Source: Parcubacteria bacterium C7867-001
GTDB taxonomy: Bacteria > Patescibacteriota > Minisyncoccia > Phycocordibacterales > Phycocordibacteraceae
NCBI GenBank assembly: GCA_001189095.1
Contig: LFCK01000002.1
Location: 1,937 to 65,936 of the forward strand
Reading direction: 5' to 3'
Length of the DNA: 64,000 bases
Shown: positions 184 through 29,443 of the stretch, piece by piece
How the letters are laid out: every line of letters begins with the position of its first letter
Numbering within the stretch: the stretch's first letter is position 1
Notes under the pieces: model-generated
Databases searched by the model: none
What the model saw: the letters and a program-made list of their open reading frames with translations, nothing else
Told to the model about the DNA's origin: nothing
Program-made: the position numbers and the translations under genes

Positions 184-493
184 CTGTGCGGAAACCTGAA
201 CACCACATGTTCATTATGATCTTTTGCAATTCTTCCTCGGCACTAACAAATGCCGAGGTCGATTACCTTTTCTTTTTTCTTGCGTATTCAGTTATCAAGG
301 AGCCCGTATCTCTTGAAACGAAAACCGCCCCGAGGGGCGGCTTTCGTGTTTCCACGATGGGTCAGCGACCCGTTCCGCTCCTTGGTTTAGGTAGACTTCG
401 TAGTGATAGACACGTAGGGAGGAGTATATGCGTGTCCCCCTACCCTGTCAACACCTCGGGGTTTCAGCTGCTTTCTGGGGATACTGGGGACAG

Positions 494-2487: not shown

Positions 2488-2504
2488 CATAGAGGGGGGT
2501 TGGA

Positions 2505-2969
2505 TTACTTAAGGGTAACCTTACCGCCAGCCTCTTCAATCTTCTTCTTGAGTTCGTCAGCTTCCTCCTTCTTCATGCCTGCCTTGAGGACCGATGGAGC
2601 GCCATCAACGGCGTCCTTCGCCTCCTTGAGACCGAGACCGAGAGCTTCCTTAACTACCTTGATCACGGCAATCTTGTTGCCGCCTGCATCAGAGAGTTCA
2701 ACGTCAAACGATGACTTCTCTTCTGCCGCTGCACCGCCGGCTGCAGGACCTGCAACCGCGACTGCTGCTGCGGATACGCCGAACTTCTCTTCGAAGACCT
2801 TCACGAGCTCGGAGAGCTCGAGGACCGTCATCGCTTCGATTTCCTCGACGATTTTCTTAAACTTAGCCGGAACTTCGACTTCTTTCTTTTCTTCTACTGC
2901 AGGCGCTGCCGGAGCTGCAGTTTCTTCAACTGCTGCCGGAGCTGCTGCATCTGCCTGTACTTCGTCCAT
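2505..2969 (-). CDS. rplL: 50S ribosomal protein L7/L12, with ~35-aa Ala/Pro/Glu-rich N-terminal extension
   Basis: [37 protein letters not shown]...[31 protein letters not shown] matches full-length L7/L12; extra low-complexity N-terminus. Confidence 0.93.
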
Positions 2970-2988
2970 AGTGATTCAATTAAATAAG

Positions 2989-3483
2989 TTACGCTGCCTT
3001 CTTCTTTGCGATTTGGTCGAGAACAATCGCCATGCCCTGAATTGGGCTGTTGATTACGTTCACGAACATACCACGGAGAACTGGAAGCGGAGGAATAGTT
3101 GCGATTGCAGTCATCTTCGCTGCATCGGCGTATACGTTTTCGAACACGCCGCCGACGATACTGAGCGCTCCGTCATGTTTCTTGCCCGTCTCGTAAATGA
3201 GGCGCGCAGGTGCCGTAGCGTCAGTGTTGCTCCATGCAATTGCTATCTCACCGGGGAGCTCGGGAATAGTTCCCGTGTAGCCCTTCTCGGCAAGCGCGCG
3301 CTTGATGAGGCTTTTCTTGGCGACATAGTAGCCCACCTGCTCATCGCGCAAACCCTTACGCATTGCGTACGTGTTCGCAGCCGAAAGGCCGGTGAACTTA
3401 ACGAAAACCACCGAGGCCGCGTCTTTGAGCGACTCGCTGACTTTTCCTACGATGTCTACTTTCTTTGCTTTGGTAATTGCCAT
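2989..3483 (-). CDS. rplJ: 50S ribosomal protein L10
   Basis: Family-level similarity, position immediately upstream of rplL. Confidence 0.9.
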   Translation of the reverse strand: MAITKAKKVDIVGKVSESLKDAASVVFVKFTGLSAANTYAMRKGLRDEQVGYYVAKKSLIKRALAEKGYTGTIPELPGEIAIAWSNTDATAPARLIYETGKKHDGALSIVGGVFENVYADAAKMTAIATIPPLPVLRGMFVNVINSPIQGMAIVLDQIAKKKAA

Positions 3484-3672
3484 AATTGGTTTTACGTACA
3501 GAAACGAACAAGGTCATCCGTTATGGATGACCGAGGAGACAGTAGAACGAGAACGCGCCGAAACGCTTCCCCGTTCGTCCCTCGGCAGGAAATTAAGGCC
3601 TTTCGACCACCCGCTGTCTTCGGTCCGTACAGGAGGGACTATACCGAAGCTGGGCCGTTCTTGCAAACGTGG
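3484..3672 (-). promoter_or_regulatory. Long 5' leader of rplJ (candidate L10 autoregulatory leader)
   Basis: 189-nt untranslated region with stable hairpin (ggtcatccataacggatgacc) directly upstream of rplJ; functional assignment is inference only. Confidence 0.25.
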
Positions 3673-4317
3673 CTACACGATTGCCTGAGCAATTGATCCC
3701 ACCACAAAGGCGGCGAGGAAGTTAAATACAAAGGAGAGGAGAATGAACGTGCGCATGCGCATCTTCGTAAACCCTAGGATAGTGATACCAATCTCGTCCG
3801 GGAGCGGCGACGCAATGATGAGACCACCCACCAAAAACGCGAGCCAGCGCAACGACTTGAGCGACATGAGCCGCTTAAAGCGCCGATATGCGCCCTGCTC
3901 AGCAAGGAGTGAGGTGAGATGTTCGGAGAAACGATCGCGTATAAAGCGGAAGATGATGAGATCGCCACAGACCGCACCGAGCGCTGCCCAGAACGCCGTG
4001 AACAAAACCCCCTGCCCTAACGCGAGCTCACCAATGGTCACCGTCGCGGGAGCAACGGTGAGAAGCGACGTGAAAAAGATTCCGGCGATGAACGTACCGA
4101 GTATCGAAAGCTCTTTGGTCTGCTCGAGGAGAAGCGCGAACGAATTATTGCCGATAAGAATTCCGGCAACCACAAGACTTATCGCTATGATGACGAGATC
4201 AAACCAGATCTCCTGATGAGCTTTGGCTAGGCGTCGTCTCATGAGAAGCGGATTACCACGGAACACCGACTGAAGTAAAACGAAGCACGAGAAGCGCAAC
4301 CGCGAGAATGAGCGCAA
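3673..4317 (-). CDS. Integral membrane protein, unknown function
   Basis: 214 aa ORF, 5-6 predicted TM helices; start may be internal Met (MRRRLAKAH...). Confidence 0.5.
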   Translation of the reverse strand: MRSFSRLRFSCFVLLQSVFRGNPLLMRRRLAKAHQEIWFDLVIIAISLVVAGILIGNNSFALLLEQTKELSILGTFIAGIFFTSLLTVAPATVTIGELALGQGVLFTAFWAALGAVCGDLIIFRFIRDRFSEHLTSLLAEQGAYRRFKRLMSLKSLRWLAFLVGGLIIASPLPDEIGITILGFTKMRMRTFILLSFVFNFLAAFVVGSIAQAIV

Positions 4318-4376
4318 ACCCTGACGCGAATTTCATAAACTCGAAGAAGTAGCGCATACGTTTACCCTAGTATAAA

Positions 4377-4406
4377 CGAAAAACCGCCCCGTAGGGCGGT
4401 TTTTCG
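4377..4406 (-). terminator. rho-independent terminator (aaaaaccgccccgtagggcggttttt)
   Basis: GC stem plus T-run 3' of the 4448..6367 gene. Confidence 0.6.
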
Positions 4407-4447
4407 TTTCCTAACTTACGTTAGGGACCTACACATTAATCCGTAGA

Positions 4448-6367
4448 TTAACGCTTCGTGACGAAGACGAGGTCGCTCTTGAACGAGTCAAGATTCGACG
4501 TGTAGTAGGTGGTGCTGAGCGTGCTCGACGGACCGTAGTTGATACCAACGAGGGTAACACCAACGTTTCCAGCGGTCGGCGTACCAGTGGTGGTAGCGAT
4601 GAACGTGGAAGTGAAGGTGAACGTACGGCTCGTGTTTGCCGAGACCTTGTACGCAGTACCAGCAACGTCGCCGTTGATGGTGTCTGCGGCCGTGACTGCA
4701 GAGCCCTGCGGTTCACCCGTAGCGCCCTGAGTCGAGCCAGTCGACGTAGCGTAGTTCACACCGCCTGCCGAAGCTGACGGAGTGGTCGAGACAGAAGCCA
4801 CCTTGGTGGTTGCTGCACCGATGAAGACGTCCGTGTCACTTGCAGTGACTGTGAACGGCATCGTGAAGGTAACGACGTCGCCCGCACCTGCGAGACCTGC
4901 CGTAACCGTCTTCGAGAACGTACCCTTCGTAACCGAAACGCCGGTTGCGGTAAGGGTCTGGGTGTAACCGAGGACTGCCGACGACGGAGTAACCGAAGCG
5001 CCGTTGTCATCCGAGACATCCCAACCATACGTCGTGGTCGACGCGATGAGCGTCGTTCCGTCTGCGTATGCGCTGTCGCCCTTGAGGTCAACAACAACAT
5101 CGAGCGTAACGGTTTCGTCAGCATCGATATCGAGGTCAACACCATCGAAGGTCGTGGTACCGAAGGTACCAGTTGAAACGGTCTTCGACTTGAGGACGGT
5201 CGAACCGTTCATAAGCTTCACAGTCGAGATAACATCGTTAAGATTGTTATCCGAAGTGCCGAGCTGGACCGGGAGGTCCGTCACGGTGACGGTCTGATTC
5301 TTCGCCTTGAGTTTGAGCGAGAGGATCTTCACGCCAGTCGTGGTCGAGCTCGAAACAGCAACCTGGCTTGCGCGAGGAGAGCTGTCCGAGAGGCTCGAGG
5401 TAAGCGTACCAGCCGTGCTTGCCGAGACGGTGAAGTCCTGGGTGATAGCAGTGCTGACGTAGGTGTCCGAGATACCATCTGCACCGGCAGCGCGGAGGCT
5501 GTCAACGAGAAGTTTCGCGGTAACCGTCTTACCATCTTCGTTCGTGCCGATCGAAGCGACCGGGGTAACTTCGACGTAGATGTTGCCCGTCTGACCATTC
5601 TTCACGACCGTGTTGAGGTTCGAGAAGCGGAAGGTCCACGTGCGTCCATCCTTGTCGCCGTCCGAAGCATCCATCGAGGCAACTTTCTTGCCATCGATGT
5701 AGAGGCTGACCGTATCGACGTACTTGTCGAGGTTCGAGCTCTGGCTTGAAACGTTTGCGACCACGAAGGTTGCATCAACGCGCTGAATCATGACATCGCC
5801 ATCCGTAGCATCTCCAGAGACGCCGACGACTTTCGTCACTGCATCGCCCTCATCGAGGTCGGTGGTGACATCGCCGAGCGAGGTGATACCGGTGAGGCGG
5901 CCATTGCCAGTGAGGCCGGTGGTCGTACCAGGAGTGCTGGTCGTGCCGCCTGCCATAGCATTGACTGCTGCGCGGGTCTTCGGACCGAAGTAGCCAGCTG
6001 CCGGCGCAATGCCGTTAGCTGCCTGGAAAGCTGCGACTGCTGCCTGGGTCTGAGAACCAAAGTAGCCAGTTGCGCCTGCCGGGATCGAGAAGCCCTTGCT
6101 GATAAGCCAGTTCTGAAGACCGGTTACGTCAGTTCCCTTTGAACCGATAGTAAGGTCTGAATTGAACATGGTGCTTCCTGTTGAGTTGGAACCACCAGCC
6201 TGCGCCTGAAGGGCTGCAATCTGCGCCATAAGAGCGCTGATCTGTGCCTGAATATCAGTCGAGGTAGCTGCCTTCGCCGGAACGTAGGCAAACGACATCG
6301 CAACGAGACCGAAACCGGCCACTACCGCTGCGATTTTCGCGACTGTATTTGTGTTTGCATTAGACAT
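4448..6367 (-). CDS. Secreted/anchored surface protein with two peptidoglycan-binding (PG_binding_1-like) repeats and a long Thr/Ser/Val-rich beta-rich region
   Basis: N-terminal hydrophobic anchor; GSKGTDVTGLQNWLISKGF...AAVAAFQAANGI repeated twice; low-complexity T/S/V-rich C-terminal 450 aa. Confidence 0.7.
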   Translation of the reverse strand: MSNANTNTVAKIAAVVAGFGLVAMSFAYVPAKAATSTDIQAQISALMAQIAALQAQAGGSNSTGSTMFNSDLTIGSKGTDVTGLQNWLISKGFSIPAGATGYFGSQTQAAVAAFQAANGIAPAAGYFGPKTRAAVNAMAGGTTSTPGTTTGLTGNGRLTGITSLGDVTTDLDEGDAVTKVVGVSGDATDGDVMIQRVDATFVVANVSSQSSNLDKYVDTVSLYIDGKKVASMDASDGDKDGRTWTFRFSNLNTVVKNGQTGNIYVEVTPVASIGTNEDGKTVTAKLLVDSLRAAGADGISDTYVSTAITQDFTVSASTAGTLTSSLSDSSPRASQVAVSSSTTTGVKILSLKLKAKNQTVTVTDLPVQLGTSDNNLNDVISTVKLMNGSTVLKSKTVSTGTFGTTTFDGVDLDIDADETVTLDVVVDLKGDSAYADGTTLIASTTTYGWDVSDDNGASVTPSSAVLGYTQTLTATGVSVTKGTFSKTVTAGLAGAGDVVTFTMPFTVTASDTDVFIGAATTKVASVSTTPSASAGGVNYATSTGSTQGATGEPQGSAVTAADTINGDVAGTAYKVSANTSRTFTFTSTFIATTTGTPTAGNVGVTLVGINYGPSSTLSTTYYTSNLDSFKSDLVFVTKR

Positions 6368-6790
6368 AATAACGTTTTTGTAAGTTTAGGATGCGTGCGA
6401 CGCGGCGGTGCTAATAATGTGTCGCGCCGCGCGCATCTTGCATTCTTTGTAATTGGTGAGTACGGACGCGCGTGGCGCCCAGTACTCGTTCGCACATTCC
6501 TTGACTACCCGACGAGGAGCATTATCGACACGCTTCTCATCGGCTAGCTGGTAAAGTGGGTTCTTTCATTCTGAAGCACATCCGTAGCTGGGAGAATCAT
6601 CCGTTCTGGTCCCGCCTTATACGCTGACGGGCAAGCGGGCGTAGGATTACGCCTTGAACAATCAATTCCCTATTCGTTTTTCAACGAACAATCCTTACGG
6701 AAGCGCCCCAGAGGCGCAAGGTACAGTATCGCCTGCGCCCTAGGGTTTTCCTCGTTTTTTCATGTGGATAACAACACAACTTAGGTACGA
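6368..6790. other. ~530-nt region without convincing ORFs (long leader of the surface-protein gene / candidate structured RNA)
   Basis: Only short, low-complexity ORFs; several GC-rich inverted repeats; lies between divergent regions of differing GC. Confidence 0.3.
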
Positions 6791-6816
6791 AAAAGAGACC
6801 GTCTCCGGTCTTTTTT
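6790..6816 (-). terminator. rho-independent terminator (aaaaagagaccgtctccggtctttttt)
   Basis: Perfect hairpin plus T-run 3' of gene 6901..7674. Confidence 0.6.
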
Positions 6817-6900
6817 CATGCATGAGTTATGCCCATACCACCCCTCCACCCTACCCCAATTATGAAGAAAGGTCAATTCAGTCCGAGCCCAAACGAGGGG

Positions 6901-7674
6901 TTAGGAAATCGAGTATTGCGTCCAACGTCGATCCCCGCTTCGGGTAACCACCCCCTCAACCACAAGTGCTTGGAGTTCGCGCTGGATAGTCTTTTCGCTT
7001 ACATCCCGAATGACGGTCGAGATATCCTTTATATAGGAAGGGCTCTTTGTACGAAGGACAGAGAGGATTGCGTCCCTCCTCCCCTGCTGATTGTCCTTTA
7101 TGTCTTTTATCTGGACCTTGTGACCTGCCTCTTGGACAACCACTGGTTCTGGGACAGAAGTCGAAGCGACTCTTGCTTTCGGTTCGTAGCGCGGCTGAAC
7201 TGATGCGCGAGCCAGAGCTGCGAGCGTTGGAGCTTCCCCGAGACTCACCCGCGGCATTTCGTACGAAGCTGCTTCTTGCAGAAGAACATGCGCCTCCTCA
7301 GAAATAAGGTCTGCATTCATAGGAGAAAGTATGCCCGCACTTCTCGCTATTGAAAGAATGCTCGAAAGTGCGAGCAATTCCTTTGAAAGCGATTCAAGAG
7401 AAAACGCGACTCCACCAATGGTCGCATCGATAAGAGCGACTGATACGCGGTCGACGCGATCTCTCAAGGACGGATGGTCCCTGAATGCTGGCGTCACGAG
7501 CGTAAGAGCTTTTGAAAGGCGCTCGGCTTTCTTGTAGATATATATCCTTTGAATGTCTTTATTAAATACGTTGTTGAATATCGATTTTTCTAGGACGAAC
7601 GAGTCTGAATCAGCACCCTTGATTCGTGATTTATACTTCTCTATGTCCTTTATGTGTCCCTTGTTGGTATCCAT
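6901..7674 (-). CDS. Hypothetical protein with C-terminal winged-helix (DeoR/GntR-like) DNA-binding domain
   Basis: 257 aa; C-terminal ...ISTVIRDVSEKTIQRELQALVVEGVVTRSGDRRWTQY; AAGGA RBS and TTGCTC-17-TATAAT promoter upstream; visibly lower GC than neighbours. Confidence 0.55.
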   Translation of the reverse strand: MDTNKGHIKDIEKYKSRIKGADSDSFVLEKSIFNNVFNKDIQRIYIYKKAERLSKALTLVTPAFRDHPSLRDRVDRVSVALIDATIGGVAFSLESLSKELLALSSILSIARSAGILSPMNADLISEEAHVLLQEAASYEMPRVSLGEAPTLAALARASVQPRYEPKARVASTSVPEPVVVQEAGHKVQIKDIKDNQQGRRDAILSVLRTKSPSYIKDISTVIRDVSEKTIQRELQALVVEGVVTRSGDRRWTQYSIS

Positions 7675-16871: not shown

Positions 16872-18308
16872 CTAGCCCAGTCTGGGAAAGAGGTTCTCGG
16901 GCTTTTTATTTTCTTGTACCGCAGCGAGTATTTTCGCCGACGTCTCCGGCATAACGCATGAAAGGTGTACCGTGAGTTTCGCGAGGTGACGCACGAGCTT
17001 TTCGATATCCTCCTTTGCTTCGTCTTTGGTAGCCTCGTCTTTTATCTTCTTATACGGTTCCCTGCTCGTCATATATTCATCTCCCTTTGCGACATGTTCG
17101 AAGATGAGATCCATTGCTTCGTTAAAGGCCTGATTTTTTATTTTGAGCGAAAAAGCAGTCTCAACCGGCGTGTTGGTTTCCGAAAGAGATACTGACTCAG
17201 TGCAGTGCTCTTCAGCAAGCTTCATAATGCGTGCAACGAGATTGCCAAGACCGTTCACGAGATTTGCGGTGTACCACTCATCGAGTTTCTCCCACGTAAC
17301 ATCAGAGTCTTCAGTTGGGTGCACGTGACGCAGGAGAAGGTAGCGCGTTGCTTCGGCGCCGTATTTCGCAACGAGCTCGTACGGGTTAATGACGTTCCCA
17401 AGTGACTTACTCATCTTCTGACCGCCACTCGTGATGAAGCCGTGATAGAACACCTGATCGGTATTCTTTACGTTTGCAGACATAAGCATCGCCTGCCACA
17501 TGAGCGACTGGAAACGCACCTGATCCTTCCCCGCTACCTGAAGCGTCGTGCCGTTCACCCAGAACTTCTCGAAATTGCCGTTCGGATCGCTCGGCCAGCC
17601 AAGCGTTGAAACGTAATCAGTAAGCGCATCGAACCAGACGTACATGACCTGCGACTCGTCATCCGGTACCGGGATACCCCACGAAAGACGCGACGCTTCG
17701 CGCGAAATACTGAAGTCCTCAAGACCGTTTTTTACGAAGTTAAGGGCTTCCTCGCGTCGCCACGAAGGAATGACACAGTCTGTGCGCGAAAGATACGCGA
17801 GGAGACGATCTTGATACTTCGAGAACGCAAAGAAATAATTCTCTTCTTGAATGAGCTGCAGCTCAAGATTGGGATGGAGAACGCAGCGATCATTCTCTAT
17901 TTCGCGCTCAGTCTTAAACGCTTCGCATCCGACACAGTACCTGCCGGTATATTTTTTCTTATAGATATCGCCCGCCGCATTGCAGCGGCGCCACATCTCC
18001 TGCGCCGCCTCCACATGGTGCGCGTCGGTCGTGCGGATGAACGTCGGATTATCGAGCGCAAGCGCGTCCTTCAGTTTTCGAAACTCGGCCGCATAGTGAT
18101 CCACGTATGCCTGTACGCTCTCCCCTTTCTTCTCGGCCGCCTCGAAAATCTTTTGCCCGTGCTCATCAGTACCCGTGTTGAAAAAGACCTCTTCGCCTTC
18201 GCTCCGATACTGACGAACGAGCACGTCGGCTTGTACGAGCTCGAGTGCAAAGCCGATGTGAGGATCGGCGTTCACGTATGGAAGAGTTGTCGTTATGTAT
18301 CGAGGCAT
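16872..18308 (-). CDS. metG: Methionyl-tRNA synthetase, short form lacking C-terminal tRNA-binding domain
   Basis: N-terminal HIGH-region variant, zinc knuckle CVGCE...RC, KMSKSLGN. Confidence 0.92.
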   Translation of the reverse strand: MPRYITTTLPYVNADPHIGFALELVQADVLVRQYRSEGEEVFFNTGTDEHGQKIFEAAEKKGESVQAYVDHYAAEFRKLKDALALDNPTFIRTTDAHHVEAAQEMWRRCNAAGDIYKKKYTGRYCVGCEAFKTEREIENDRCVLHPNLELQLIQEENYFFAFSKYQDRLLAYLSRTDCVIPSWRREEALNFVKNGLEDFSISREASRLSWGIPVPDDESQVMYVWFDALTDYVSTLGWPSDPNGNFEKFWVNGTTLQVAGKDQVRFQSLMWQAMLMSANVKNTDQVFYHGFITSGGQKMSKSLGNVINPYELVAKYGAEATRYLLLRHVHPTEDSDVTWEKLDEWYTANLVNGLGNLVARIMKLAEEHCTESVSLSETNTPVETAFSLKIKNQAFNEAMDLIFEHVAKGDEYMTSREPYKKIKDEATKDEAKEDIEKLVRHLAKLTVHLSCVMPETSAKILAAVQENKKPENLFPRLG

Positions 18309-19919: not shown

Positions 19920-21239
19920 CTATGCGCGCAGACTATCCGCAAGTTCCGAAATCGGAACACGCTTCTGCTCGCCGGTGTCGCGGTCGCGAAGCGTCACGGT
20001 GTCCGTATGTTCTGGATTCTCACCGAGTGTGTCGAAGTCAATGGTGATGCAGGCCGGCGTACCGATTTCATCCTGTCGTCGATACCGCTTTCCAATGTTG
20101 CCGTTGTCGTCGAAGATAACCGAGACACCCGCCTTTTTAAGTATTGAAAAGACTTCGCGTGCTTTCTCGACGAGTTCTGGCTTATTCTTCAAAAGCGGAA
20201 AGACTGCTGCGCGGTACGGCGCAACGCTCGGTGAAAGCGCGAGGTACACACGCTTCTCGCCTCCAAGCTCATCCTCACGGTACGCCGATGCAAGAATTGC
20301 GAGCACGGTACGGTCGACACCGAGAGATGGCTCGATGACGTGCGGCACGATGCGCTCCTTGGTTTCTTCATCGAAATATGAGAGTTCGACACCCGACGCT
20401 TCTGCGTGGCGGGAGAGGTCGAAGTCGGTGCGATACGCAAGACCCCAGAGTTCTTTGCGGCCGAACGGATAGTCGAATTCGAAATCTATGGTGCGCTTGG
20501 AGTAGTGAGCGCGATCCCCATCGGCAACCTCGAGCTCGTGAACGCGCTCCTTGGTGAGACCAACCGCCGCAGCGAATGCGTGCATAGTCCCCTGCCATTC
20601 AGTGAACGCAGCTGCCCACGCCTCAGGCTTTACGAAATACTCCACCTCCATCTGCTCGAGCTCACGCAGGCGGAAGATGAAATCGCGCGGAGCTATTTCA
20701 TTTCTAAAAGCCTTTCCTATCTGCGCGATGCCGAACGGAAGCTTCGGGTGGAAGGAGTCGATGACGTTCTTGAAGTTCACGAAGATGCCACCGGCCGTCT
20801 CAGGACGAAGGTATGTTGCCGATGACTCATCTTCAGTAGCACCCACATTCGTGCGGAACATCATATTGAACTGGCGCGAAGGGCCGAGTGATCCTCCGCA
20901 ATTTGGACAAATGCCAGACTCATCAAGATGATCGGCACGGAAACGGCGCTTACACTTGGTGCACTCGACCAGCGGATCAGAGAAGCCGGAAACGTGTCCT
21001 GAAGCTTCCCATGCTTTCGGATTCATAAGAATGGCCGCATCGACGCCATACATGTCCTCGCGATCAGTAACGAACATCTTCCACCAGAGGTTCTTCACGT
21101 TCTGCTTGAGGGCGACGCCGAGCGGTCCATAGTCGAAGGTACCCGCGAGGCCGCCATAAATCTCCGAGCCGGGGTATACGAAACCGCGACGCTTAGCGAG
21201 CGAGACGATGTTCTCCATGAGGTTCGATTCCGAAGCCAT
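19920..21239 (-). CDS. glyQS: Glycyl-tRNA synthetase, alpha2 dimeric type
   Basis: Class II aaRS motifs, zinc-binding CTKCKRRFRADH...CPNCGG insertion; start refined to MASESNLMENIVSLAKRRGFVYPGSEIYGG. Confidence 0.92.
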   Translation of the reverse strand: MASESNLMENIVSLAKRRGFVYPGSEIYGGLAGTFDYGPLGVALKQNVKNLWWKMFVTDREDMYGVDAAILMNPKAWEASGHVSGFSDPLVECTKCKRRFRADHLDESGICPNCGGSLGPSRQFNMMFRTNVGATEDESSATYLRPETAGGIFVNFKNVIDSFHPKLPFGIAQIGKAFRNEIAPRDFIFRLRELEQMEVEYFVKPEAWAAAFTEWQGTMHAFAAAVGLTKERVHELEVADGDRAHYSKRTIDFEFDYPFGRKELWGLAYRTDFDLSRHAEASGVELSYFDEETKERIVPHVIEPSLGVDRTVLAILASAYREDELGGEKRVYLALSPSVAPYRAAVFPLLKNKPELVEKAREVFSILKKAGVSVIFDDNGNIGKRYRRQDEIGTPACITIDFDTLGENPEHTDTVTLRDRDTGEQKRVPISELADSLRA

Positions 21240-21243
21240 AATC

Positions 21244-23121
21244 CTACTGTTGTACCTCACCCTTGGAGAATTGGTAAGCGGGGTCGGTTTCGGTGCGCGT
21301 ATCGAGCGGGTCCGCATCGCTCTGCACCTGCTTACCTATGAAGCGATCGAAGCCCGAGAGCGTCTGCTTCCCTACCAAGACCGGCGAGATACCGCGCTGG
21401 GAAAGACTTGGAGTAAGCGCAACTTGGAAGGCTGCCTCACGGGACGTTCCTGCAGCCACATCTCCCAAATCCCACGTCACCACGCGGGAATTCTCGTTAT
21501 ACGTCACCGAACCGTTCGTTTTTCCGGTAAAGCGCACGTAGGAAGGCAGTGTCATCGTTGCCGTGCCTTCAGCAACTGAGTTCACGCTGTTGGTCGCAGA
21601 CAAGATGATGGTGTAGGTCGACTCTTTATCAGCGACCGGAGGCCATGGACCGGTGTTTACGAAAGGACCTACGGTCTTTACGACGCGCGAGGAAAGAAGG
21701 AAGTCAGTCGCGACCTTTAGGGTGCGCGTGATGGTTGAATTGACCGACGTCGGTACACCGGTCTCCCCTACTCGTTGGCCTGAGACTGAAACCGAAAGAT
21801 TGATGACTGGATTTCTAAGTGACGCGAGCGCACTGCCGGTCTTCGTCATGAGTGAGAACGAGCCGTTTCCAGTGTCCCCCGGCTGCAAGGAGCGAAGTCC
21901 CTGATCCTTATCGGAACTGAAGAGAATGCTTGTGTCGGACGAGCGATAAAAACCAGTTCCGCTCGTTATCTGTGCCGGATCGAGTGCCGAGCCTGAAAAC
22001 TTCACAATAATCTGAGCGTTCTTAATAGGCGTCGAGAGCGTGTTCTCCCACGAAAGGAGTCCTTGGATTGGCGTACCCCCTTGAACGATGAGAGGATCTG
22101 TTTCGTTTTGATTAATTGAGAGACGCGCAGCGAGGAAGGGCTTGCTTACCGTGAGCGGAACTTCCGCACTCGTATACGTGACGCCGAGCATCTGGCTCGT
22201 AATGCCGGGGGTACCGACATCAAAATGGAAGACGCGCTGTTCGTTGTCGGCTGCCGAGAGCGCTCCGGTGATGGTAATCTTGCGCTCTTCACCCGGCGCA
22301 AGCGTTCCAAGCACGAACACACTTCCTGTCTCCGGCTGCGGGTCTGCCTTAGTTACCGAGAATCCAAACGGATACGTTCCAATGAGTTCAACATTCTGGA
22401 GTGGCGTCGCAGAATTCGAACGCACCGTGATTGCAATAGTGAATGGCTGTGCCGACGAAACCTCCGAGAGCGTATTCACTGAGAGCCCCACCGGCGATGT
22501 GCCTATCGTAAGACTGTACTCGGTTTTCTTCTGGAAAATAGCTTTTGAGCCGTCGGTCTTGTATTCAAGCATAATCGGAATCACGACGCGCTGATTTTCA
22601 TTCCCGAAGAGCGTCGCACGAATGGTGCGTACGGCAGTCGCGCCCGCAGGAATGGTGCCAAGTGTATCGGCGTAATGCGAAAGCGGCGTGTTCTGTTCAT
22701 CACCCGAATAGGTCCCTTCCGGAAAATCGATCACGAGATTCGTATCGTTCATATCGACCGGATTGTTGTTCTTTATGGAAATGAGAAGCGGTATCGTATC
22801 GCCGCCCGCAGACGTCGTTGGCCCCTGCACCTTTATATCAATATGATCCGTCGAGACCGACCGACCGCCAGCGAACACAAGCCACGCAGCCACACCACAA
22901 GCGATAAGGAAGAAAACCGCCGCACCAATGAGGAAAATAGTTGAAGCGGCAATCTTCTTTTTTGGAGCAACTGGTACTGGCGCCGGTTCTTGCTGCCATC
23001 CGGTCGGTACCGAGGTGTCGCGGCGCGAAACAGTACGTTCGTTGAACGCTTCGGTTGGTGCCGGCGCATAGAGCCGTTTATTGAGCCGCTCAAGCGGGCT
23101 TCCTCCCTGCTCGCCTTCCAT
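21244..23121 (-). CDS. Large membrane-anchored extracellular protein with repeated beta-rich domains
   Basis: Pro-rich N-terminus, single TM helix, ~520 aa of S/T/V/N-rich repeat domains (DUF11/CARDB-like by composition). Confidence 0.55.
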   Translation of the reverse strand: MEGEQGGSPLERLNKRLYAPAPTEAFNERTVSRRDTSVPTGWQQEPAPVPVAPKKKIAASTIFLIGAAVFFLIACGVAAWLVFAGGRSVSTDHIDIKVQGPTTSAGGDTIPLLISIKNNNPVDMNDTNLVIDFPEGTYSGDEQNTPLSHYADTLGTIPAGATAVRTIRATLFGNENQRVVIPIMLEYKTDGSKAIFQKKTEYSLTIGTSPVGLSVNTLSEVSSAQPFTIAITVRSNSATPLQNVELIGTYPFGFSVTKADPQPETGSVFVLGTLAPGEERKITITGALSAADNEQRVFHFDVGTPGITSQMLGVTYTSAEVPLTVSKPFLAARLSINQNETDPLIVQGGTPIQGLLSWENTLSTPIKNAQIIVKFSGSALDPAQITSGTGFYRSSDTSILFSSDKDQGLRSLQPGDTGNGSFSLMTKTGSALASLRNPVINLSVSVSGQRVGETGVPTSVNSTITRTLKVATDFLLSSRVVKTVGPFVNTGPWPPVADKESTYTIILSATNSVNSVAEGTATMTLPSYVRFTGKTNGSVTYNENSRVVTWDLGDVAAGTSREAAFQVALTPSLSQRGISPVLVGKQTLSGFDRFIGKQVQSDADPLDTRTETDPAYQFSKGEVQQ

Positions 23122-23143: not shown

Positions 23144-23704
23144 CTATAGACCGGATGCCGCGAGGCCGCGGTTGATACGCGAAACGATTGCGGAACGATC
23201 AGAAACAATCGCCGAAAGCGACTCGGGAACGAACTCAGTCGATGGAATCTCTCCGGCATCAAGACCCAGAATGCGCACAATGCGCAGCGCAACGAGACAC
23301 TCAGCAGCATCTTGCTCAGTCTCGCTAAGCGAGGGCAGCGCCGCGAGAAACGAAGCGAACGCGCCATAGAGCGCGATGTCCCCCGCTTCTCCATGCACGA
23401 GCCGCTGGATGAGGGAGGCGATACGTCCGGCGCGCAAACGCGCCGACCGCGAAAGCTGCCTAAACCAGTTCGTGCCGAGCACTGCGTTCGGAATCCTCCA
23501 CCCCTCTTTGCCGCGAACGAGCATGAGATCCGATTCGCAGAGTGTCTGGAGCGCTGACGAGAGCTTAGCCGAAGGAGTACGAACACCTTGCACGCGGGCG
23601 CGAATGAGCCCGAATTCGGGCGTGAGAATCGTAACGAGGAGTGACGCTTCCGCGAGCGGTATGCGAGAAAGGACAATGCCCGTCGTTACGTATTTATGGC
23701 GCAT
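23144..23704 (-). CDS. recO: DNA repair protein RecO
   Basis: [34 protein letters not shown]... OB-fold N-terminus. Confidence 0.8.
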
Positions 23705-26700
23705 GCTTCTTTAACGAGAATGCAACGGTGCCCGTCGAAAGCTCTGCTTTATGCGGACCTTCACCACGAACCGCTTCGACCGAATCCTTCGGCGAGAATC
23801 CTTCAGTCTTGCGCGCCTCGGCAACCGCACGGAGGAATGCTCGCTCATCCCCTTCCGCAACAAGCTCGGGAGTGAGATTCGTATCGAGCGAAATTTCGGA
23901 AGCATTCGGGAGTATCTTCTTTACATTCACTTCATCCGCGAGAATGGCTGCGAGCTCATCTGGAAGTCTGTCCGGAATCGAAAGCGACGCGAGCGGCTGA
24001 CGCACAATGACGCCGGCCTTCTGACGGAGCTTGAGCGCTTCGGAAGCGCGCGCCCGAACGAGACTCATCGCCTCAATAAGAGCTGGGTTCCTGTTACCAC
24101 CGATAATGCTTGAGAACGTGAACGGAAGGATCTGCACCGGCCAATTCGCGAGATGCACGCTTTCCGGATCATGCTCCGTACGCACGGTCTGGAATACCTC
24201 TTCCGCGAGAAACGGCGCGAACGGCGCAAGCATGAGCGCAGATACTCGAAGGGTCTCGCGGAGCGTTCGCAAAGCGGCAACATCGCCATCGCGCGCACGA
24301 TCGCGAACACGGCGGACGTACCACTGCGAAAGGTCCTCGAAGAGGCCTGCGAGTGTACGCGACGCTTCGTACAGCTTGTACGCGTCGAGGTGCTTCGTAA
24401 CAAGCATGAGCGTTTCGTTGGTGCGTTCTCGCATCCACTTATCGATAACCTCTTCCTTCCCTCCTTGGAGCGATTCGGTTTTGAATAGTTCGTAAAACTT
24501 TGCGCTGTTATCGAGCCATGAAAGCACGCGCGCCGTTTCCTTCACCGTTTTCGGATCGAAGTTCTTTGAATCGCCCGGCTGGTTCACATAGTACATCCAG
24601 TAGCGCAACGTATCGGCGCCGTATTCATCCATTGCCGAGAACGGTTCGATGACATTTCCTTTTGATTTACTCATCTTCTTTCCTTCCGCGTCGAGGAGAT
24701 GACCAAGGGAGACGACATTTTTGTACGGAGCGCCGCGACCCATAAGCGTTCCCACAGCAAGCAGCGTGTAGAACCACCCACGCGTTTGGTCTATCGCTTC
24801 TGAAATGTAGTCAGCGGGATACACGACATTTTTGGGATCCTGCGCGAACGGCATAGCGCCCGAGTCGAACCAGACATCCATAACTTCGGGTGTGCGGCGC
24901 AGTTCGGCTCCTGAATCACCGACAAGCACAACATCGTCAATGTACGGACGATGGAGATCGAGTTCGTAGTTATCGTTATGCGGGAGCGGAACAAATGGGA
25001 GTTCAACTGGTTCGGCATGCTTAGTGTCCATTGCGTCAATGCGTCGCTTTGCTTGGTCACTCGTAAGCCCCTCAGTGACCGCAGTCATTGATTCGACACC
25101 CACACCGTGGGTGATGATGAGAATAACTTCGTTTGAGTATGTTGCCTCAAGCTCGTAGAGAAATTCACCAAACCGCTGTTTGGCATCGAAATAACTTTCG
25201 CCGTTTGGCATTCGATCCGTGAACGAACTACCCTTACGCCACGCAAGAAATGTCTCGAACGGACCTCTATTTAAATCGCCGAACCGGAGCTCGCGCAGAC
25301 GATCGTCGTAGATAATATTCGATGCGTCGAGACCTAGGTTCTCCGTCATAATTTCCGCGGTTTGCCGCGTTCGTTCTATAGGAGACGCGAATATTTTCGT
25401 TGGGATTCCGGGCAGCTTCCCTGCGGCACTTTTCGCTTGCTCCTTCCCTGTTTCCGTAAGTCCGTACGTATCGTTGTCTGAGCAGAGAATATGCGCGACG
25501 TTGTTTTCCGCTTCTCCATGACGCACGACAATGTAGCGATTACCGCTCTTTTTGGTGCGCGACTTGAGTTCCTCGACCGAACCGGGGACGAACCGCTCCT
25601 TCTTGTCCGAGCTTTCCCACACCGGAAGCGGCGTGCCCCAATAGCGTTCGCGGCTTATCGCCCAATCCTTTACGTTTGCGAGCCATTCGCCCATGCGCCC
25701 TTCGCGCAAGTATGACGGTTCCCAATTCACCGACTGGTTCGACGCGAGGAGCTTTTCTTTGAGATCCGTCATACGGACATACCACGAGTCACGCGCGTAA
25801 TAGATGAGACGGTTCTTGCTGCGCCAGCAGTGCGGATAGGAGTGCGTGTAGCTTTCCTTCGCGAAATAGTTGCCGCGTTCCTGCAGATCTTTCAGGACTT
25901 CTATGTTCGTTTCCGCATCAATCACCGACTTTCCTTCGAGGAAGCCTGTCCCCCTGAGGAAGCGGCCATCGGGTCCGATAAGATGCACTTTCGGAAGTCC
26001 TATTTTCTGCCCGAGCTCAAAATCGTCCTGACCATACATGACGGCGGTATGCACGACGCCCGTACCGTCTTCGGTCGTAACAAAATCAGCTGCGTGCACT
26101 TTGTACGCATTCTCAAACTTCGATTTTTCGCTTTCTGCCGCAAGCTCTTTCGCAAATGAATAGAGTGGCTTGTATACCTTTCCGACCAACTCGCTCCCCT
26201 GCACATCCTTTTCTTTGGTCCACCCTTCACCAAGTTTTGCAGCCAGTGCATTCGCGATGACTACGCGTTCAGCGTCCTTACTATAGACTCCGTATGTAAT
26301 ATTTTTTCCTACCGCGAGCGCGACATTTCCCGGAAGCGTCCATGGCGTCGTCGTCCACGCAAGAATATAGGTGTTTGGTTCGTCGACAAGCTCGAACTTC
26401 GCGGTGAGTGAGAGGTCCTTCACGTCTTCGTATCCTTGCGCGAGTTCGTGACTTGAAAGCGCTGTTCCGCAAACCACACACCACGGCACCACTTTAAAAT
26501 CCTTGTAGAGTCGGTCATCATCGTTAATCTTTTTAACGACGCCAAAGAGCGCTTCCATGTAGGAAACGTCGAACGTGAAGTATGCCTGCGTACGATCGAC
26601 CCAATAGCCGATGCGCTCGGTGAATTTATCCCAGAGGTCGATGTAGGAAAGCACGCTCTCGCGGCATTTTGCATTGAACGCAGCAACACCGTACTTCTCT

Positions 26701-27020
26701 ATCTCCGGCTTTCCAGAAAATCCGAGCTGTTTCTCTACCTCGAGCTCGACCGGAAGACCATGCGTGTCCCAGCCTGCTTTGCGCGGAACGTGATAGCCGC
26801 GCATCGTCTTATAGCGCGGAATAGCGTCTTTGAAGGCTCGTGCCTCAAGGTGATGGATACCGGGTTTTCCGTTCGCGGTCGGAGGACCTTCAAAAAATAC
26901 GAAGTTCCCTTTCGGCGCCTTCTTGGCGAGCGTTTTCTCGAAAATCTTCTGCTCCTTCCAGAAAGCGAGGACCTTCTCTTCGCGCGTCGCCGCGTCCGAT
27001 TTCTGCACTGGTTCGGCCAT
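23694..27020 (-). CDS. ileS: Isoleucyl-tRNA synthetase with an internal histidine-phosphatase (PGAM-like) domain insertion
   Basis: HIGH region ([20 protein letters not shown]), CP1 editing domain, KMSKSKGN, anticodon-binding tail. Residues ~494-680 (nt ~24981..25541) carry [25 protein letters not shown] and ITHGVG, the catalytic signature of the histidine phosphatase superfamily, in place of the usual CxxC zinc-ribbon segment between PLPVW and LHRPYID. Confidence 0.9.
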
Positions 27021-27046
27021 AATTACTTATCCTATCGTTTGCGTCA

Positions 27047-27082
27047 TGAAAAAGAAACAACCGGCGCGTTTGCGCCGGTTGG
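27047..27082 (-). terminator. rho-independent terminator (caaccggcgcgtttgcgccggttg plus T-run on minus strand)
   Basis: 3' of gene 27119..27388, upstream of ileS. Confidence 0.55.
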
Positions 27083-27118
27083 GTGGTTTTTTTGCGATCG
27101 CGAGTCTAGTGAAGAGAC

Positions 27119-27388
27119 TCAGGCGGCCGCTTCGGAGAGTTCGAGAACGCCGAGCACATAGTGCCGGACGTGGTGCGGAATGAGCGGGGTTCTGCCCGTC
27201 TTCGCTTCGCGCGACCACTTGAATCGTGAGATGTTGTCCTCCCATAATTCGTGTTTGAATTCACGCCTTCCTTCAGCTGCGGTCTTCGCTTTCGCGAAGA
27301 GGCACTCGACAGAGCAATTGAGTTTCTTGCGGGCTGCCTCCATCATCTGGAGCCATTCCCAGCCAGTTCCCTGCTCTACTGAAAGCAT
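27119..27388 (-). CDS. Small hypothetical protein (89 aa)
   Basis: ORF track 27119..27481 begins with GTG; internal ATG (MLSVEQGTGWEW...) has GGAGG RBS. Confidence 0.45.
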   Translation of the reverse strand: MLSVEQGTGWEWLQMMEAARKKLNCSVECLFAKAKTAAEGRREFKHELWEDNISRFKWSREAKTGRTPLIPHHVRHYVLGVLELSEAAA

Positions 27389-27535
27389 GTACGCCTCCGT
27401 TATATGTACCCCTGCAGAATGCACGGGTCCAGTCGCGAAGCGTAACGTGAAGCGTTCATGAACGCAAGCAAGGTTATGCACGCATGAAAAACCGCCGCAC
27501 CAAAGGTGCGGCGGCGAATCACGTACGGAGCAGCG

Positions 27536-27718
27536 TTACTGCTCCTGTGCTTTTCGAGCGAATTCACTTGGTTCGATAGGCGCATCCGGATCCCGTACAG
27601 GGTGACGTGCTTCGAACATCATGCGGTCGAAATCTTGTCGCGGGGACTTTCCTTGTTTCCAACTATCGAACGTCGAGGGCGGTAGATCCACCTTCGGTGG
27701 CGTCGATTCTTCAGTCAT
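27536..27718 (-). CDS. Small hypothetical protein (60 aa)
   Basis: Start refined to MTEESTPPKV with ACGGAGT RBS; own hairpin terminator at ~27486..27514. Confidence 0.4.
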   Translation of the reverse strand: MTEESTPPKVDLPPSTFDSWKQGKSPRQDFDRMMFEARHPVRDPDAPIEPSEFARKAQEQ

Positions 27719-27808
27719 GAATGTACTCCGTGTGTATCGTGTATATGACGATCCACCTGTTCCCAATCTTGTAGACGGGCTGTGGTGTCTCGTATTACTT
27801 CACTAGAT

Positions 27809-29443
27809 TTACATTCGTTCTGGCGCGGGTATCCCAAGGAGCGTAAGTCCGTTGGTCATCGTCATCACAAATGCTTTCGCGACCCGCAGCTTATAACTCC
27901 TGTGACTACCGTCAAGGATGCGTTCTTTGGCATAAAAAGAATTCCACTCTCCCGCAAGCTGGGTGAGGTACTGCGCAATGTGGTGTGGAGCGCGTTCACG
28001 CTCGGCGCGAGCAGCGATTTCTGGAAAGCGCGCGATGAGTCGCTCGATGAGATACGGCGCATCTGGAGCATCTGTAACTTCAGATTCTTCCTTCGCCGCC
28101 GCAAGCACCGACTTTGCTCGCACGAGCGCGTACTGGAGATAGGGACCGGAGTCACCATCGAGTGAAAGCGACTTTTCAGCATCGTACACAATGCTTCCTC
28201 CTGCAGCCTGACGCAGAATCATATATTTCAGCGCCGCAACACCGACCTGCTGCGCAATCAAAGGATCTGCATTCTTTTCTCCTGCGCGCGTAATGACCTC
28301 CGACAAGAGACCGTTCGCGGTAATGGTGTTGCCGAGACGCGAAGACATCTTTCCGGTTGTAAGCGTCAAGAGACCATGAGAAATATGGCTCGTCTTTTCT
28401 GCGAGAAGTGGAGCGATTTCAGCAAGTGCTGCGAGGAATACTTTGAAGTGACCGACCTGCTCTGCACCTGTTTCGATAATGACTGCGTCGTTCGGTATGC
28501 GTTCTTCCTTATAAAAGGCGAGACCAACGTCTTTCGCTTCGTAGGTGGGAGTTCCGCGGCTCGTAATGAACACGAGCGTATGGAGTCCTTTTTTCTCTCC
28601 CGGATAAATGACCGCTCCGTCGCTTTCGACAAAAACACCCTTGGCGAGCGCGTCTTTCACCACCTCCATACCTTGCGGCGTTACTTCGCTCTCAAAGAAG
28701 TAGTAATCGAACTTCGTTCCGAGCACGACATAGATCTCGCGGAATGCTTCGAGACACACTTCGCGACACTTGCGCCACAAATCCATGAGTGCTACGTCTT
28801 CGCCTTTATAAATTGCAACATTCAGTGCGTTGATCTCGGCTTTTGCGTTTTCACTTTCTTCATACGCTTTTGCGCCGTGCGCATACGCTTTGTCGACTTC
28901 GCTGGCATTCGCCACATCAGTCACACCATCCCGTTGCAGCGCCCAAAGCGCTTTTGCAACATGCGGACCAACATCGCCTCCGTACGAGTCGCGGATAACG
29001 GTGGCGCCCGAGTTTTCGATGATGCGCGAGACCGATTCGCCGATGACCGTACTCATCAGGTGTCCCACATGCATTTCTTTAAACGGATTCGGGCAGGAAT
29101 ATTCCACAACGATACGCTTTCCTTCATTCTGTATTCCCTTCCCCCACTCTTCCTTGATTGCTGCTTCCATCGCCTCAGCAACCGCTTTCGCTGAAAGCGT
29201 AATGTTGATAAACCCCGGACCAGCAACATCTACGCGCTGCGCAATTTCGCCAAGCGCCTCCCGAATCTTCGGCGCAAGCTCCGCGGCAAGCTCGCGTGGA
29301 TTCTTACCAAGCGATTTTGCTGCAGCGAGCGCCACGTTCGTAGCGTAATCACCATGCGAAGCGTCCGTCGGGGTTTCAACCGCAAACGCAACTTCTACAC
29401 CCCCAAGCGCTTTGTGTACGGCATTTCGTATAAGGTCTTCCAT
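27809..29443 (-). CDS. argS: Arginyl-tRNA synthetase
   Basis: N-terminal Arg-tRNA add-1 domain, HVGH variant (MHVGHLMSTVIGE), C-terminal DALK domain. Confidence 0.93.
   Translation of the reverse strand: MEDLIRNAVHKALGGVEVAFAVETPTDASHGDYATNVALAAAKSLGKNPRELAAELAPKIREALGEIAQRVDVAGPGFINITLSAKAVAEAMEAAIKEEWGKGIQNEGKRIVVEYSCPNPFKEMHVGHLMSTVIGESVSRIIENSGATVIRDSYGGDVGPHVAKALWALQRDGVTDVANASEVDKAYAHGAKAYEESENAKAEINALNVAIYKGEDVALMDLWRKCREVCLEAFREIYVVLGTKFDYYFFESEVTPQGMEVVKDALAKGVFVESDGAVIYPGEKKGLHTLVFITSRGTPTYEAKDVGLAFYKEERIPNDAVIIETGAEQVGHFKVFLAALAEIAPLLAEKTSHISHGLLTLTTGKMSSRLGNTITANGLLSEVITRAGEKNADPLIAQQVGVAALKYMILRQAAGGSIVYDAEKSLSLDGDSGPYLQYALVRAKSVLAAAKEESEVTDAPDAPYLIERLIARFPEIAARAERERAPHHIAQYLTQLAGEWNSFYAKERILDGSHRSYKLRVAKAFVMTMTNGLTLLGIPAPERM

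Follow-up and report, generated by a model that had tools for sequence, protein, structure and literature searches.

A histidine phosphatase domain nested in the catalytic body of a type-2 isoleucyl-tRNA synthetase from a Parcubacteria bacterium

Background

Aminoacyl-tRNA synthetases belong to the most thoroughly studied enzymes, and the catalytic modules known to have been added to them comprise editing domains and a small number of terminal appendages. Here we describe an isoleucyl-tRNA synthetase (IleRS) gene, ileS of Parcubacteria bacterium C7867-001, whose product has a histidine phosphatase (HP) domain nested within its catalytic body. The gene lies in a stretch of 64,000 nucleotides of contig LFCK01000002.1 (positions 1,937 to 65,936), which was analysed as a whole and is called the window; coordinates refer to the window unless another locus is named. 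Judging by sequence comparison, the product is a bifunctional polypeptide that combines a type-2 IleRS with a complete branch-1 HP fold, and this fold is genetically coupled to IleRS and to valyl-tRNA synthetase (ValRS).

On the synthetase side, the closest described systems are bacterial type-2 enzymes, eukaryote-like and mupirocin-resistant, whose class I signature motif is of the non-canonical G/AXHH type, such as D. radiodurans IleRS2 and the GVHH mutant of P. megaterium IleRS2 (8c8w); the window IleRS falls into the same motif class. This motif has been tied experimentally to mupirocin hyper-resistance in IleRS2 (Brkic et al., PMC10485003). The order of the structural elements is also that of type-2 IleRS: Rossmann fold, CP core, CP1 editing domain, CP2, CP3, KMSKS loop, anticodon-binding domain and type-2 C-terminus. 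In contrast to the described and solved IleRS enzymes, the window IleRS has a catalytic domain within CP3, and the zinc ligands of CP3 are gone.

In IleRS the name CP3 is given to the part of the chain that follows the WxxSRxRYWG linker and precedes the second half of the Rossmann fold (PMC7191050, PMC7955072). In yeast IleRS this linker lines the pocket occupied by tRNA-CCA or reveromycin (PMC7955072). CP3 is the most variable of the CP elements of IleRS; its zinc motif is present in the T. thermophilus enzyme and absent from those of Candida and S. aureus, and the topology differs among the three (PMC7191050). A first-pass annotation of the window, made from the sequence alone, had regarded a Cys4 zinc ribbon as the norm at this place, which does not hold for S. 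aureus and Candida IleRS (PMC7191050).

On the phosphatase side, the insert shares its fold and the RHGxxxxN, SPxxR, E and H-G elements with stand-alone branch-1 HPs of broad specificity (PhoE/YhfR 1h2e, PspA 4ij5, GpgP Rv2419c 4pz9, CobC, and the short archaeal dPGM of NF038349). It differs from them in sequence (22-29% identity), in its unconserved cap and in a C-terminal helix-strand extension that permits nesting. An intact HP joined to a nucleic-acid or nucleotide enzyme is also found in the RNase H/acid phosphatase proteins (PRK07238, Rv2228c type) and in MutT1 (Nudix plus HP), and the NCBIfam models of both match the insert weakly. These are end-to-end fusions, whereas the synthetases described here carry the HP within their catalytic body, in several loops and sometimes in tandem. 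A curated IleRS with an extra catalytic domain exists in NF040702 (ileS_w_GNAT), but the added domain there is a GNAT domain, and the window protein matches only the IleRS part of the model.

We found no account in the literature of a phosphatase within any synthetase, and two studies of IleRS phylogeny and domains (PMC10485003; 10.64898/2026.02.03.703510) make no mention of an HP in IleRS. In public records the precomputed Pfam assignments show both domains, and the proteins are named just IleRS or class I tRNA ligase. The architecture thus appears to be undescribed although the sequences are public, in agreement with what the first-pass annotation had supposed.

The host synthetase

The gene and the motifs that define its product as a synthetase are:

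23694..27020, minus strand: ileS, type-2 IleRS with nested HP domain, an open reading frame (ORF) of 1108 amino acids (aa)
26850..26861, minus strand: signature motif GIHH, aa 54-57, the non-canonical (swapped) G/AXHH form of the class I HIGH motif, read from the sequence
24858..24878, minus strand: DVWFDSG, aa 715-721, where the second half of the Rossmann fold begins, from alignment and sequence
24663..24677, minus strand: KMSKS loop, aa 782-786, intact, from alignment to 8c8w and sequence

The whole protein reached the NCBIfam ileS equivalog TIGR00392 (790 bits, cutoff 621), and the next-best models were those of MupA and MupB, which are of type 2. When the PDB was searched by sequence, the best relatives were P. 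megaterium IleRS2 (8c8w, E=3e-204) and T. thermophilus IleRS (1ile, E=7e-200), while similarity to the type-1 side was much weaker (S. aureus IleRS and PmIleRS1, E=2e-90). The CP1 editing domain could be aligned with the isolated editing-domain structures 1wk8 and 1ue0. An AlphaFold2 (AF2) model of the full-length protein had a pLDDT of 89.8 and a pTM of 0.79, and was matched by Foldseek to IleRS2 structures with TMt values of 0.73-0.84. The matching solved synthetase structures are at most 1061 aa long, hence none is long enough to contain the extra domain.

The flanking synthetase motifs had been described as intact. This was borne out for KMSKS and CP1, whereas the HIGH motif has the non-canonical form GIHH. 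The same G/AxHH class was found in 116 of 132 HP-bearing full-length relatives, and canonical HxGH in 14. The zinc site of the CP core also looks eroded in the window IleRS: C181 and C184 are kept, and the second pair has become C398-x-x-S401, in a region where the orthologue consensus is CWRCK. As far as can be read from these comparisons, the host is a functional-looking, housekeeping type-2 (GXHH-type) IleRS, for which charging activity is predicted.

The inserted domain

The insert was delimited as follows:

24969..25556, minus strand: inserted module, aa 489-684, a branch-1 HP, with limits from the alignment to 8c8w
25044..25532, minus strand: Pfam His_Phos_1 (PF00300), aa 497-659, E=1e-28 with the whole protein and 6.5e-30 with the insert alone

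Pfam assigned to the window IleRS a tRNA-synt_1 domain interrupted by His_Phos_1, the latter with a score of 100.8 bits against a gathering cutoff of 21.7. In the alignment to 8c8w, residues 8-488 of the query correspond to residues 8-477 of the chain and residues 685-1035 to residues 484-846; about 196 aa of the window IleRS occupy the place of 6 aa in P. megaterium IleRS2. The insert ends in a C-terminal helix and strand that lead the chain back to CP3. A model of the insert (aa 486-690), based on an alignment of 58 sequences, was predicted by AF2 with a pLDDT of 96.4 and a pTM of 0.92, and a Foldseek search of the PDB with this model returned exclusively branch-1 histidine phosphatases (probability 1.00, TM 0.70-0.76, identity 22-29%, E about 1e-12). 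Among them were S. pombe PGM (1fzt), PspA (4ij5/4ij6), the glucosyl-3-phosphoglycerate phosphatase Rv2419c (4pz9), a riboflavin-pathway phosphatase, TIGAR, PhoE (1h2e) and CobC; a sequence search of the PDB with the insert gave an agreeing set, which also included F26BPase. The first-pass annotation had placed an HP-like module at 24981-25541, corresponding to aa 494-680, and Pfam, AF2 and Foldseek all confirm a branch-1 HP there.

The domain is not an artefact of assembly. A 100% identical protein has been deposited as isoleucyl-tRNA synthetase of Parcubacteria bacterium C7867-001, and PF00133 together with PF00300 was found in each of the 120 best-matching full-length homologues, which are 1098-1173 aa long, show 61-67% identity and come from many independent assemblies. 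Because the identical protein is on deposit and all these homologues share the architecture, an assembly chimera can be excluded; a frameshift and a pseudogene are excluded as well, since the gene is a single ORF without frameshift and its base composition shows no discontinuity across the insert. The view that this is an in-frame domain and not a pseudogene was therefore correct.

Several more specific identities were tried for the insert and rejected. Scores were far below the family cutoffs for dPGM (NF038349, dPGM_arch, 91-95 bits against 225; TIGR01258, pgm_1, 20.8 against 81.7; PRK14115, 18 against 305), CobC (TIGR03162, 67-71 against 163), PspA phosphoserine phosphatase (NF045917, 44-49 against 350) and SixA (TIGR00249, 24 against 74.5). 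The residues agree with the rejection of dPGM: the dPGM pattern after the catalytic Glu is E-R-H-Y-G, while the window IleRS has E-L-R-F-G at E577. Among orthologues the cap varies, as do the two residues that follow E577, and the consensus is ExxFG. By these comparisons the insert is a generic member of the HP superfamily and not a recognisable dPGM, CobC, PspA or SixA. An intein or other self-splicing element, for which a nucleophilic Cys/Ser/Thr at the N-junction, HN plus Cys/Ser/Thr at the C-junction and a Hint fold would be expected, was also discarded, as the junctions (KSR/TKKSGN and PLPHNDN/YELD) are without intein residues and the HP fold covers the whole insert. A search of PADLOC-DB yielded no defence-system match, either for the embedded domain or for the stand-alone relatives described below. 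Both matched phrog_12933 in PHROGs (E about 1e-23), a phage family with no function assigned; phages thus encode related histidine phosphatases as well.

Active site and selection

The catalytic residues of the family are all present in the window IleRS. Their conservation was determined in 157 embedded HP domains made non-redundant at 60% identity:

25515..25523, minus strand: RHG motif, with R500, the nucleophile H501 and G502; R and H 100% conserved, and invariant in further alignments
25371..25373, minus strand: R550, second phosphate-binding Arg (SPxxR motif), 99% conserved
25290..25292, minus strand: E577, putative proton-donor Glu (RLRELRFG), 98% conserved
25107..25109, minus strand: H638, second catalytic His (THG motif, ITHGVG), 99% conserved

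The three motifs quoted in the first-pass annotation (RHG, the second Arg and ITHGVG) are thus present as R500/H501, R550 and H638. The positions conserved to at least 90% in the 157 domains were N494, R500, H501, G502, N507, L521, T522, G525, S546, R550, A555, E577, G581, E608, R616 and H638. In the cap (aa 582-606), the segment that touches the substrate in characterised members, no position reached 90%, and G585 alone reached 80%. Across the 120 orthologues the mean identity to the window protein was 48% for the insert and 69% for the remainder, and R500, H501, R550, E577 and H638 were at least 98% conserved. A wider set of 344 scored HP hits, in which embedded and tandem copies stood beside stand-alone proteins and numerous truncated fragments, had the R-H-R-E-H pentad complete in 286 cases and a substitution in 11, the rest being mostly fragments that do not span all five residues.

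Since the residues of the phosphate pocket are kept while the cap varies, the alignments indicate strong purifying selection on the HP chemistry and little on any specific small-molecule pocket. By the same measure the insertion is old, and it is held under selection on R500, H501, N507, R550, E577 and H638. The HP domain is apparently catalytically complete, and phosphatase activity is predicted. If the family chemistry applies, R500, R550, N507 and H638 would hold a terminal phosphoryl group for attack by H501, and E577 would protonate the leaving group; the resulting phospho-His501 intermediate would then be hydrolysed.

Position of the domain in CP3

The surroundings of the insert were located by comparison with characterised enzymes:

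25635..25664, minus strand: CP2-CP3 linker of the window IleRS, aa 453-462, homologous to 453-ARDWNVSRNRYWG-465 in PMC7955072
25557..25616, minus strand: N-terminal half of CP3, aa 469-488, first CxxC lost, from alignment to the 8c8w stretch VWECEGCQHQVAPKSIKELQKH
24879..24968, minus strand: C-terminal half of CP3, aa 685-714, second CxxC lost, from alignment to 8c8w

The HP sits at the tip of CP3, in the distal loop, and all four Cys residues that form the knuckle in PmIleRS2 and TtIleRS are replaced in the window IleRS. The observation that no Cys pairs remain at this site was right: neither half of CP3 contains a single Cys. The accompanying idea that the HP had replaced the zinc ribbon must be given up. 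CxxC...CxxC is kept on either side of the HP in the enzymes L006, L007 (Yanofskybacteria), L008 (Spechtbacterales) and L009 (Peregrinibacteria), and, conversely, an IleRS2 of Saccharimonadales (L039) is free of the insert and has nevertheless lost the Cys residues. Both Cys pairs were found in 6 of the 132 full-length enzymes with an HP in CP3, and no pair in 119.

The AF2 blocks spanning the two HP junctions score about 90 or more. Together with the pTM of 0.79 for the full-length model, these values predict that the HP packs firmly and rigidly on the synthetase and does not dangle from it.

Distribution among relatives

The insert was scanned against 1.84 billion cluster representatives, which gave 581 matches below 1e-10. 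About 95 of the best 150 of these were class Ia synthetases and the remainder were short proteins or fragments; no host protein other than a class Ia synthetase was seen among the best 150. Carriers were then recorded with one genome per species among the matches listed, which is not a census. On this basis the carriers belong to Patescibacteria/Paceibacteria, Yanofskybacteria, Spechtbacterales, Peregrinibacteria and Peribacteria, and the insert is absent, among the matches listed, from IleRS2 of Bacteroidota, Firmicutes, Actinobacteria, Chloroflexi and Saccharimonadales. The first-pass annotation had asked whether the insertion is lineage-specific. It extends across the lineage, in many uncultured relatives from the candidate phyla radiation (CPR), and is not unique to this genome; in public records the domain had already been assigned by Pfam.

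Four of the fusion clusters were of ValRS type, and some relatives have two to four HP domains per synthetase. ValRS proteins with the same HP subfamily include P0326 and P0362, a complete ValRS (P0358) with one HP in the CP2 region and another in CP3, the first of which has Ala for the proton-donor Glu, and a ValRS fragment (P0254) with four tandem HP copies. IleRS proteins with two HPs are P0266, P0348 and P0336. In the P0266 family (1419 aa; one member lies on a 1.06-Mb contig) and in P0348 the two HPs follow DCWFESGSMPYA and stand just before the anticodon-binding domain, the signature motif is canonical HYGH, and CP3 is uninterrupted. Judged by the flanking motifs, the HP occupies six loop positions in IleRS and ValRS taken together:

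IleRS: CP3; the loop after DCWFESGSMPYA; the loop just before the anticodon-binding domain
ValRS: the CP2 region after EPMISPQWF; CP3; the loop after DTWFSS

HP copies of the same protein are 22-36% identical to one another. Apart from the ValRS copy in which Ala takes the place of the Glu, and a terminal copy that is truncated, the tandem copies keep the catalytic residues that their sequences cover. As they have diverged and yet kept these residues, the copies are old active sites that have been maintained separately. On the sequences compared here, the association of this HP subfamily with class Ia synthetases is a wider feature of the CPR.

Two further observations concern the same subfamily. 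An IleRS of Peribacteria (L010, CAYRXE010000008.1, ORF 2504-6919) has two tandem HPs in CP3, and the CP3 segment DLHRPYID is seemingly missing after the second HP (...SAPHNAETKKLTFTPVMKRIPDVLDCWFESG). Three di-domain proteins (P0380, P0398 and P0399) consist of two HPs of this subfamily and lack any synthetase portion. Their source is a Woesearchaeota (DPANN) archaeon, so that the subfamily extends to the second radiation of ultra-small symbionts.

A stand-alone relative next to ileS

In a Staskawiczbacteria locus (L011) a gene for a stand-alone HP of 202 aa lies between argS and ileS, 4 bases upstream of ileS, and the ileS product of this locus (947 aa) has an intact zinc knuckle and no insert. 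Relatives of this HP form at least 120 protein clusters (clustering at 90% identity) and are 56-83% identical to the L011 protein. In every context examined (L081-L085) the gene order was AA_kinase, argS, HP, ileS without insert, an unknown gene, and recO; recO was seen downstream of ileS in L083 and L084. In one Staskawiczbacteria lineage (L081/L082, 5678-7686) an RHH / YafQ-like toxin-antitoxin pair and two unknown ORFs lie between the HP gene and ileS.

The C-terminus of the stand-alone HP (KRIHKAEIRELN) resembles the corresponding stretch of the window insert, and because these ends match, the embedded and the stand-alone HPs can be placed in one subfamily. That the HP is fused to IleRS in one lineage and encoded beside it in an operon in another is Rosetta-stone evidence, of the classical kind, that the two are functionally linked.

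The window agrees with this synteny except that the HP is inside ileS, its order being SHMT, argS, a gap of 788 bp, ileS with its HP, recO, and a gene for a DUF11 protein. The immediate neighbours of ileS are:

27809..29443, minus strand: argS, upstream neighbour, with an ArgRS-like translation
23144..23704, minus strand: recO-like gene, downstream neighbour, RecO_N E=4.6e-15

The gap between argS and ileS (27021-27808) is unusually long, and it lies exactly where Staskawiczbacteria hold the stand-alone HP gene. A full-sensitivity HMM search in six frames detected no HP remnant in it, and no Rfam family was found there. Its sole ORF (27119-27481, minus strand, 120 aa) had no Pfam match. Terminator-like hairpins were found at four sites of the gap against about 1.3 expected; two of them are one palindrome (27058-27081) read on both strands, and another is at 27491-27515.

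The two forms of the HP differ in charge. Embedded HPs are acidic (median pI 5.7, net charge -6, n=255) and the short stand-alone class, which includes some fusion fragments, is basic (median pI 9.7, net charge +13, n=176). At four loci the net charge per 100 aa was +6 to +12 for the stand-alone HP and about -0.7 to +2.5 for the adjacent ArgRS and IleRS, with about +1.5 to +6.5 for other small proteins of the same AT-rich genomes. The contrast, calculated from sequence, is suggestive but not decisive.

Two of the stand-alone HPs (P0455 and P0502, about 195 aa) are named 'isoleucyl-tRNA synthetase' by JGI, which probably reflects annotation transfer from fused proteins. The JGI label of the stand-alone relatives is 'broad specificity phosphatase PhoE'.

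Possible functions

We rank the readings of the substrate in the order tRNA end, metabolite, by-product of aminoacylation, phosphoprotein and, last, no catalytic role at all. Our preferred guess, a tentative one that agrees with the tRNA-end idea of the first-pass annotation, is that the substrate could be a phosphorylated tRNA acceptor end, in which a 3'-phosphate or 3'-pyrophosphate on A76 blocks charging. The synthetase body would supply the recognition of the tRNA, the flexible CCA end would visit the HP much as it visits the editing site, and removal of the 3' phosphate would make the tRNA chargeable again. The location in CP3, directly after the linker that lines the CCA pocket, speaks for such a substrate. 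The charge contrast fits a basic free HP that binds RNA itself and an acidic embedded HP that borrows the tRNA binding of the synthetase, and the variability of the cap speaks against any particular small metabolite.

The HD domain of the bacterial CCA-adding enzyme is known to restore tRNA 3' ends. Pyrophosphorylation of the 3'-CCA, specific for tRNA, is performed by toxSAS/CapRel as a toxin or antiphage mechanism and blocks aminoacylation (10.1101/2021.04.30.441581; PMC11559606; PMC9712102). In its proposed function only, the HP would resemble the small alarmone hydrolases that reverse toxSAS pyrophosphorylation (10.1101/2021.04.30.441581; PMC11782079); its fold is unrelated to theirs and to the HD domain of the CCA-adding enzyme. 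That the HPs are de-blocking phosphatases, which reverse the (pyro)phosphorylation of specific tRNAs or of the synthetase by toxins or antiphage effectors, is a bolder proposal that we consider rather unlikely. If it is true, a third active site would have been added time and again to the class Ia synthetases of CPR bacteria, IleRS and ValRS would be self-repairing charging machines, and the diverged tandem copies would handle successive or different phosphate lesions.

A number of points weigh against a tRNA-end substrate. In the HP fold the active site is found where strand beta-1 ends, across from the chain termini, and it probably faces away from the attachment to CP3. A requirement for one precise geometry is disfavoured by the six insertion positions and the arrays of as many as four copies, which would fit simple tethering, or the co-expression of a general phosphatase, equally well. 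An acidic domain beside tRNA is unexpected for an RNA-end enzyme, and the basic charge of the stand-alone form is partly a property of AT-rich genomes, as other small neighbours are positively charged too. The best NCBIfam match, although far under its cutoff, is to archaeal dPGM (91 bits against 225). Only IleRS and ValRS were seen as carriers, which general tRNA repair leaves unexplained. Finally, we know of no branch-1 histidine phosphatase that acts on RNA 3' ends.

It is also possible, though we would not expect it, that the domain is a small-molecule phosphatase or mutase that has been parked in an essential, constitutively made protein of a streamlined genome and has no link to aminoacylation. 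The nearest curated families are indeed small-molecule enzymes (dPGM_arch with 91-95 bits, then CobC, GpmB and PspA), as are the PDB relatives (S. pombe PGM, TIGAR, PhoE, F26BPase, PspA, Rv2419c and the riboflavin-pathway HFP), and the JGI label of the stand-alone proteins points the same way; many sites and diverged tandem copies would fit a toolkit of differing specificities with no fixed geometry. However, all scores against curated equivalogs are far under cutoff, and the dPGM residues E-R-H-Y are absent, being E-L-R-F in the window IleRS and variable elsewhere. A cap that contacts the substrate and is unconserved in 157 embedded domains would be unexpected in a dedicated metabolic enzyme, and recurrence exclusively in IleRS and ValRS (about 95 of the best 150 matches), with an operonic stand-alone gene besides, is hard to credit to chance.

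A third reading, which we regard as doubtful, is that the HP cleaves pyrophosphate (PPi), or Ap4A-derived or other nucleoside polyphosphates, and thereby drives activation and eases product inhibition. Tethering would suffice for this purpose, in keeping with multiple sites and extra copies, and conservation of the phosphate pocket alone is what would be expected for a tiny substrate. The hosts, IleRS and ValRS, are two synthetases that burn much ATP in editing. Cleavage of phosphoanhydrides by histidine phosphatases has precedents in E. coli AppA and in the HP domain of mycobacterial MutT1, whose NCBIfam model matches the insert weakly. But PPi diffuses freely and is made by every synthetase, so that there is no reason for its removal in IleRS and ValRS only, and the other synthetases of the same window, including ArgRS, have no HP insert:

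16872-18308: MetRS, no HP insert
19920-21317: class II synthetase, no HP insert

Nor would a by-product hydrolase explain the strongly basic stand-alone form, and the low identity between tandem copies (22-36%) suggests different jobs and not dosage. The aminoacyl-adenylate itself had been put forward as a substrate in the first-pass annotation. This is chemically unlikely, as the pocket takes a terminal phosphate and not a diester-like acyl-adenylate; aminoacyl-AMP is a substituted phosphate of the kind handled by HIT-type enzymes.

It is improbable that the domain serves as a protein phosphatase on the synthetase or a partner, for instance by removing a HipA/HipT-like inhibitory phosphate from a Ser of the KMSKS loop, which by analogy might provide built-in immunity. 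Branch 1 includes the protein phosphatases PGAM5 and Sts-1 as well as SixA, to which the insert has a weak match, and Hip kinases phosphorylate the class I synthetases GltX and TrpS. All HP sites are on or next to the catalytic body, one of them shortly after KMSKS, and a macromolecular substrate would be in keeping with the variable cap. Yet no kinase was found in the neighbourhoods examined and PADLOC gave no match, four tandem copies would be superfluous for self-dephosphorylation, and the basic stand-alone form would be left without explanation.

A non-catalytic role, whether as a structural replacement or enlargement of CP3, a ligand-binding regulator or a selfish in-frame insertion, is very improbable: although CP3 is variable, with zinc present or absent, and tolerant of insertions (PMC7191050), and although the spread over several sites and two host genes, with tandem arrays, has a superficial likeness to mobile insertions, conservation stands at 98-100% for the nucleophile His, both Arg, the proton-donor Glu and the second His, against a drift of the domain as a whole to 22-50% identity, a stand-alone orthologue is kept in at least 120 protein clusters (90% identity), the junctions have no intein-like N-terminal Cys or Ser, and the composition is not foreign.

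Other genes of the window

A 23S rRNA gene reaches into the edge of the window with its 5' end (1-186, minus strand), and nine tRNA genes, single or paired, are found between 41052 and 57325. They are specific for His, Leu (two genes), Val, Arg (three genes), Ser and Lys.

Implications

An active, unrelated hydrolase nested in the catalytic body would represent a new type of synthetase architecture. The domain has been under selection for long, was gained convergently at several loops of two synthetases, is multiplied to as many as four copies, and has a counterpart in the operon partner of a sister lineage. The finding raises the question of which phosphate needs to be removed beside IleRS and ValRS in tiny symbiotic bacteria, and it may expose an unrecognised maintenance step of tRNAs or synthetases, or a conflict with toxins and phages. 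Metabolic reconstructions of CPR bacteria may moreover mis-score HP activity, given that the fused proteins are named only as IleRS and that this name has been misapplied to stand-alone phosphatases.

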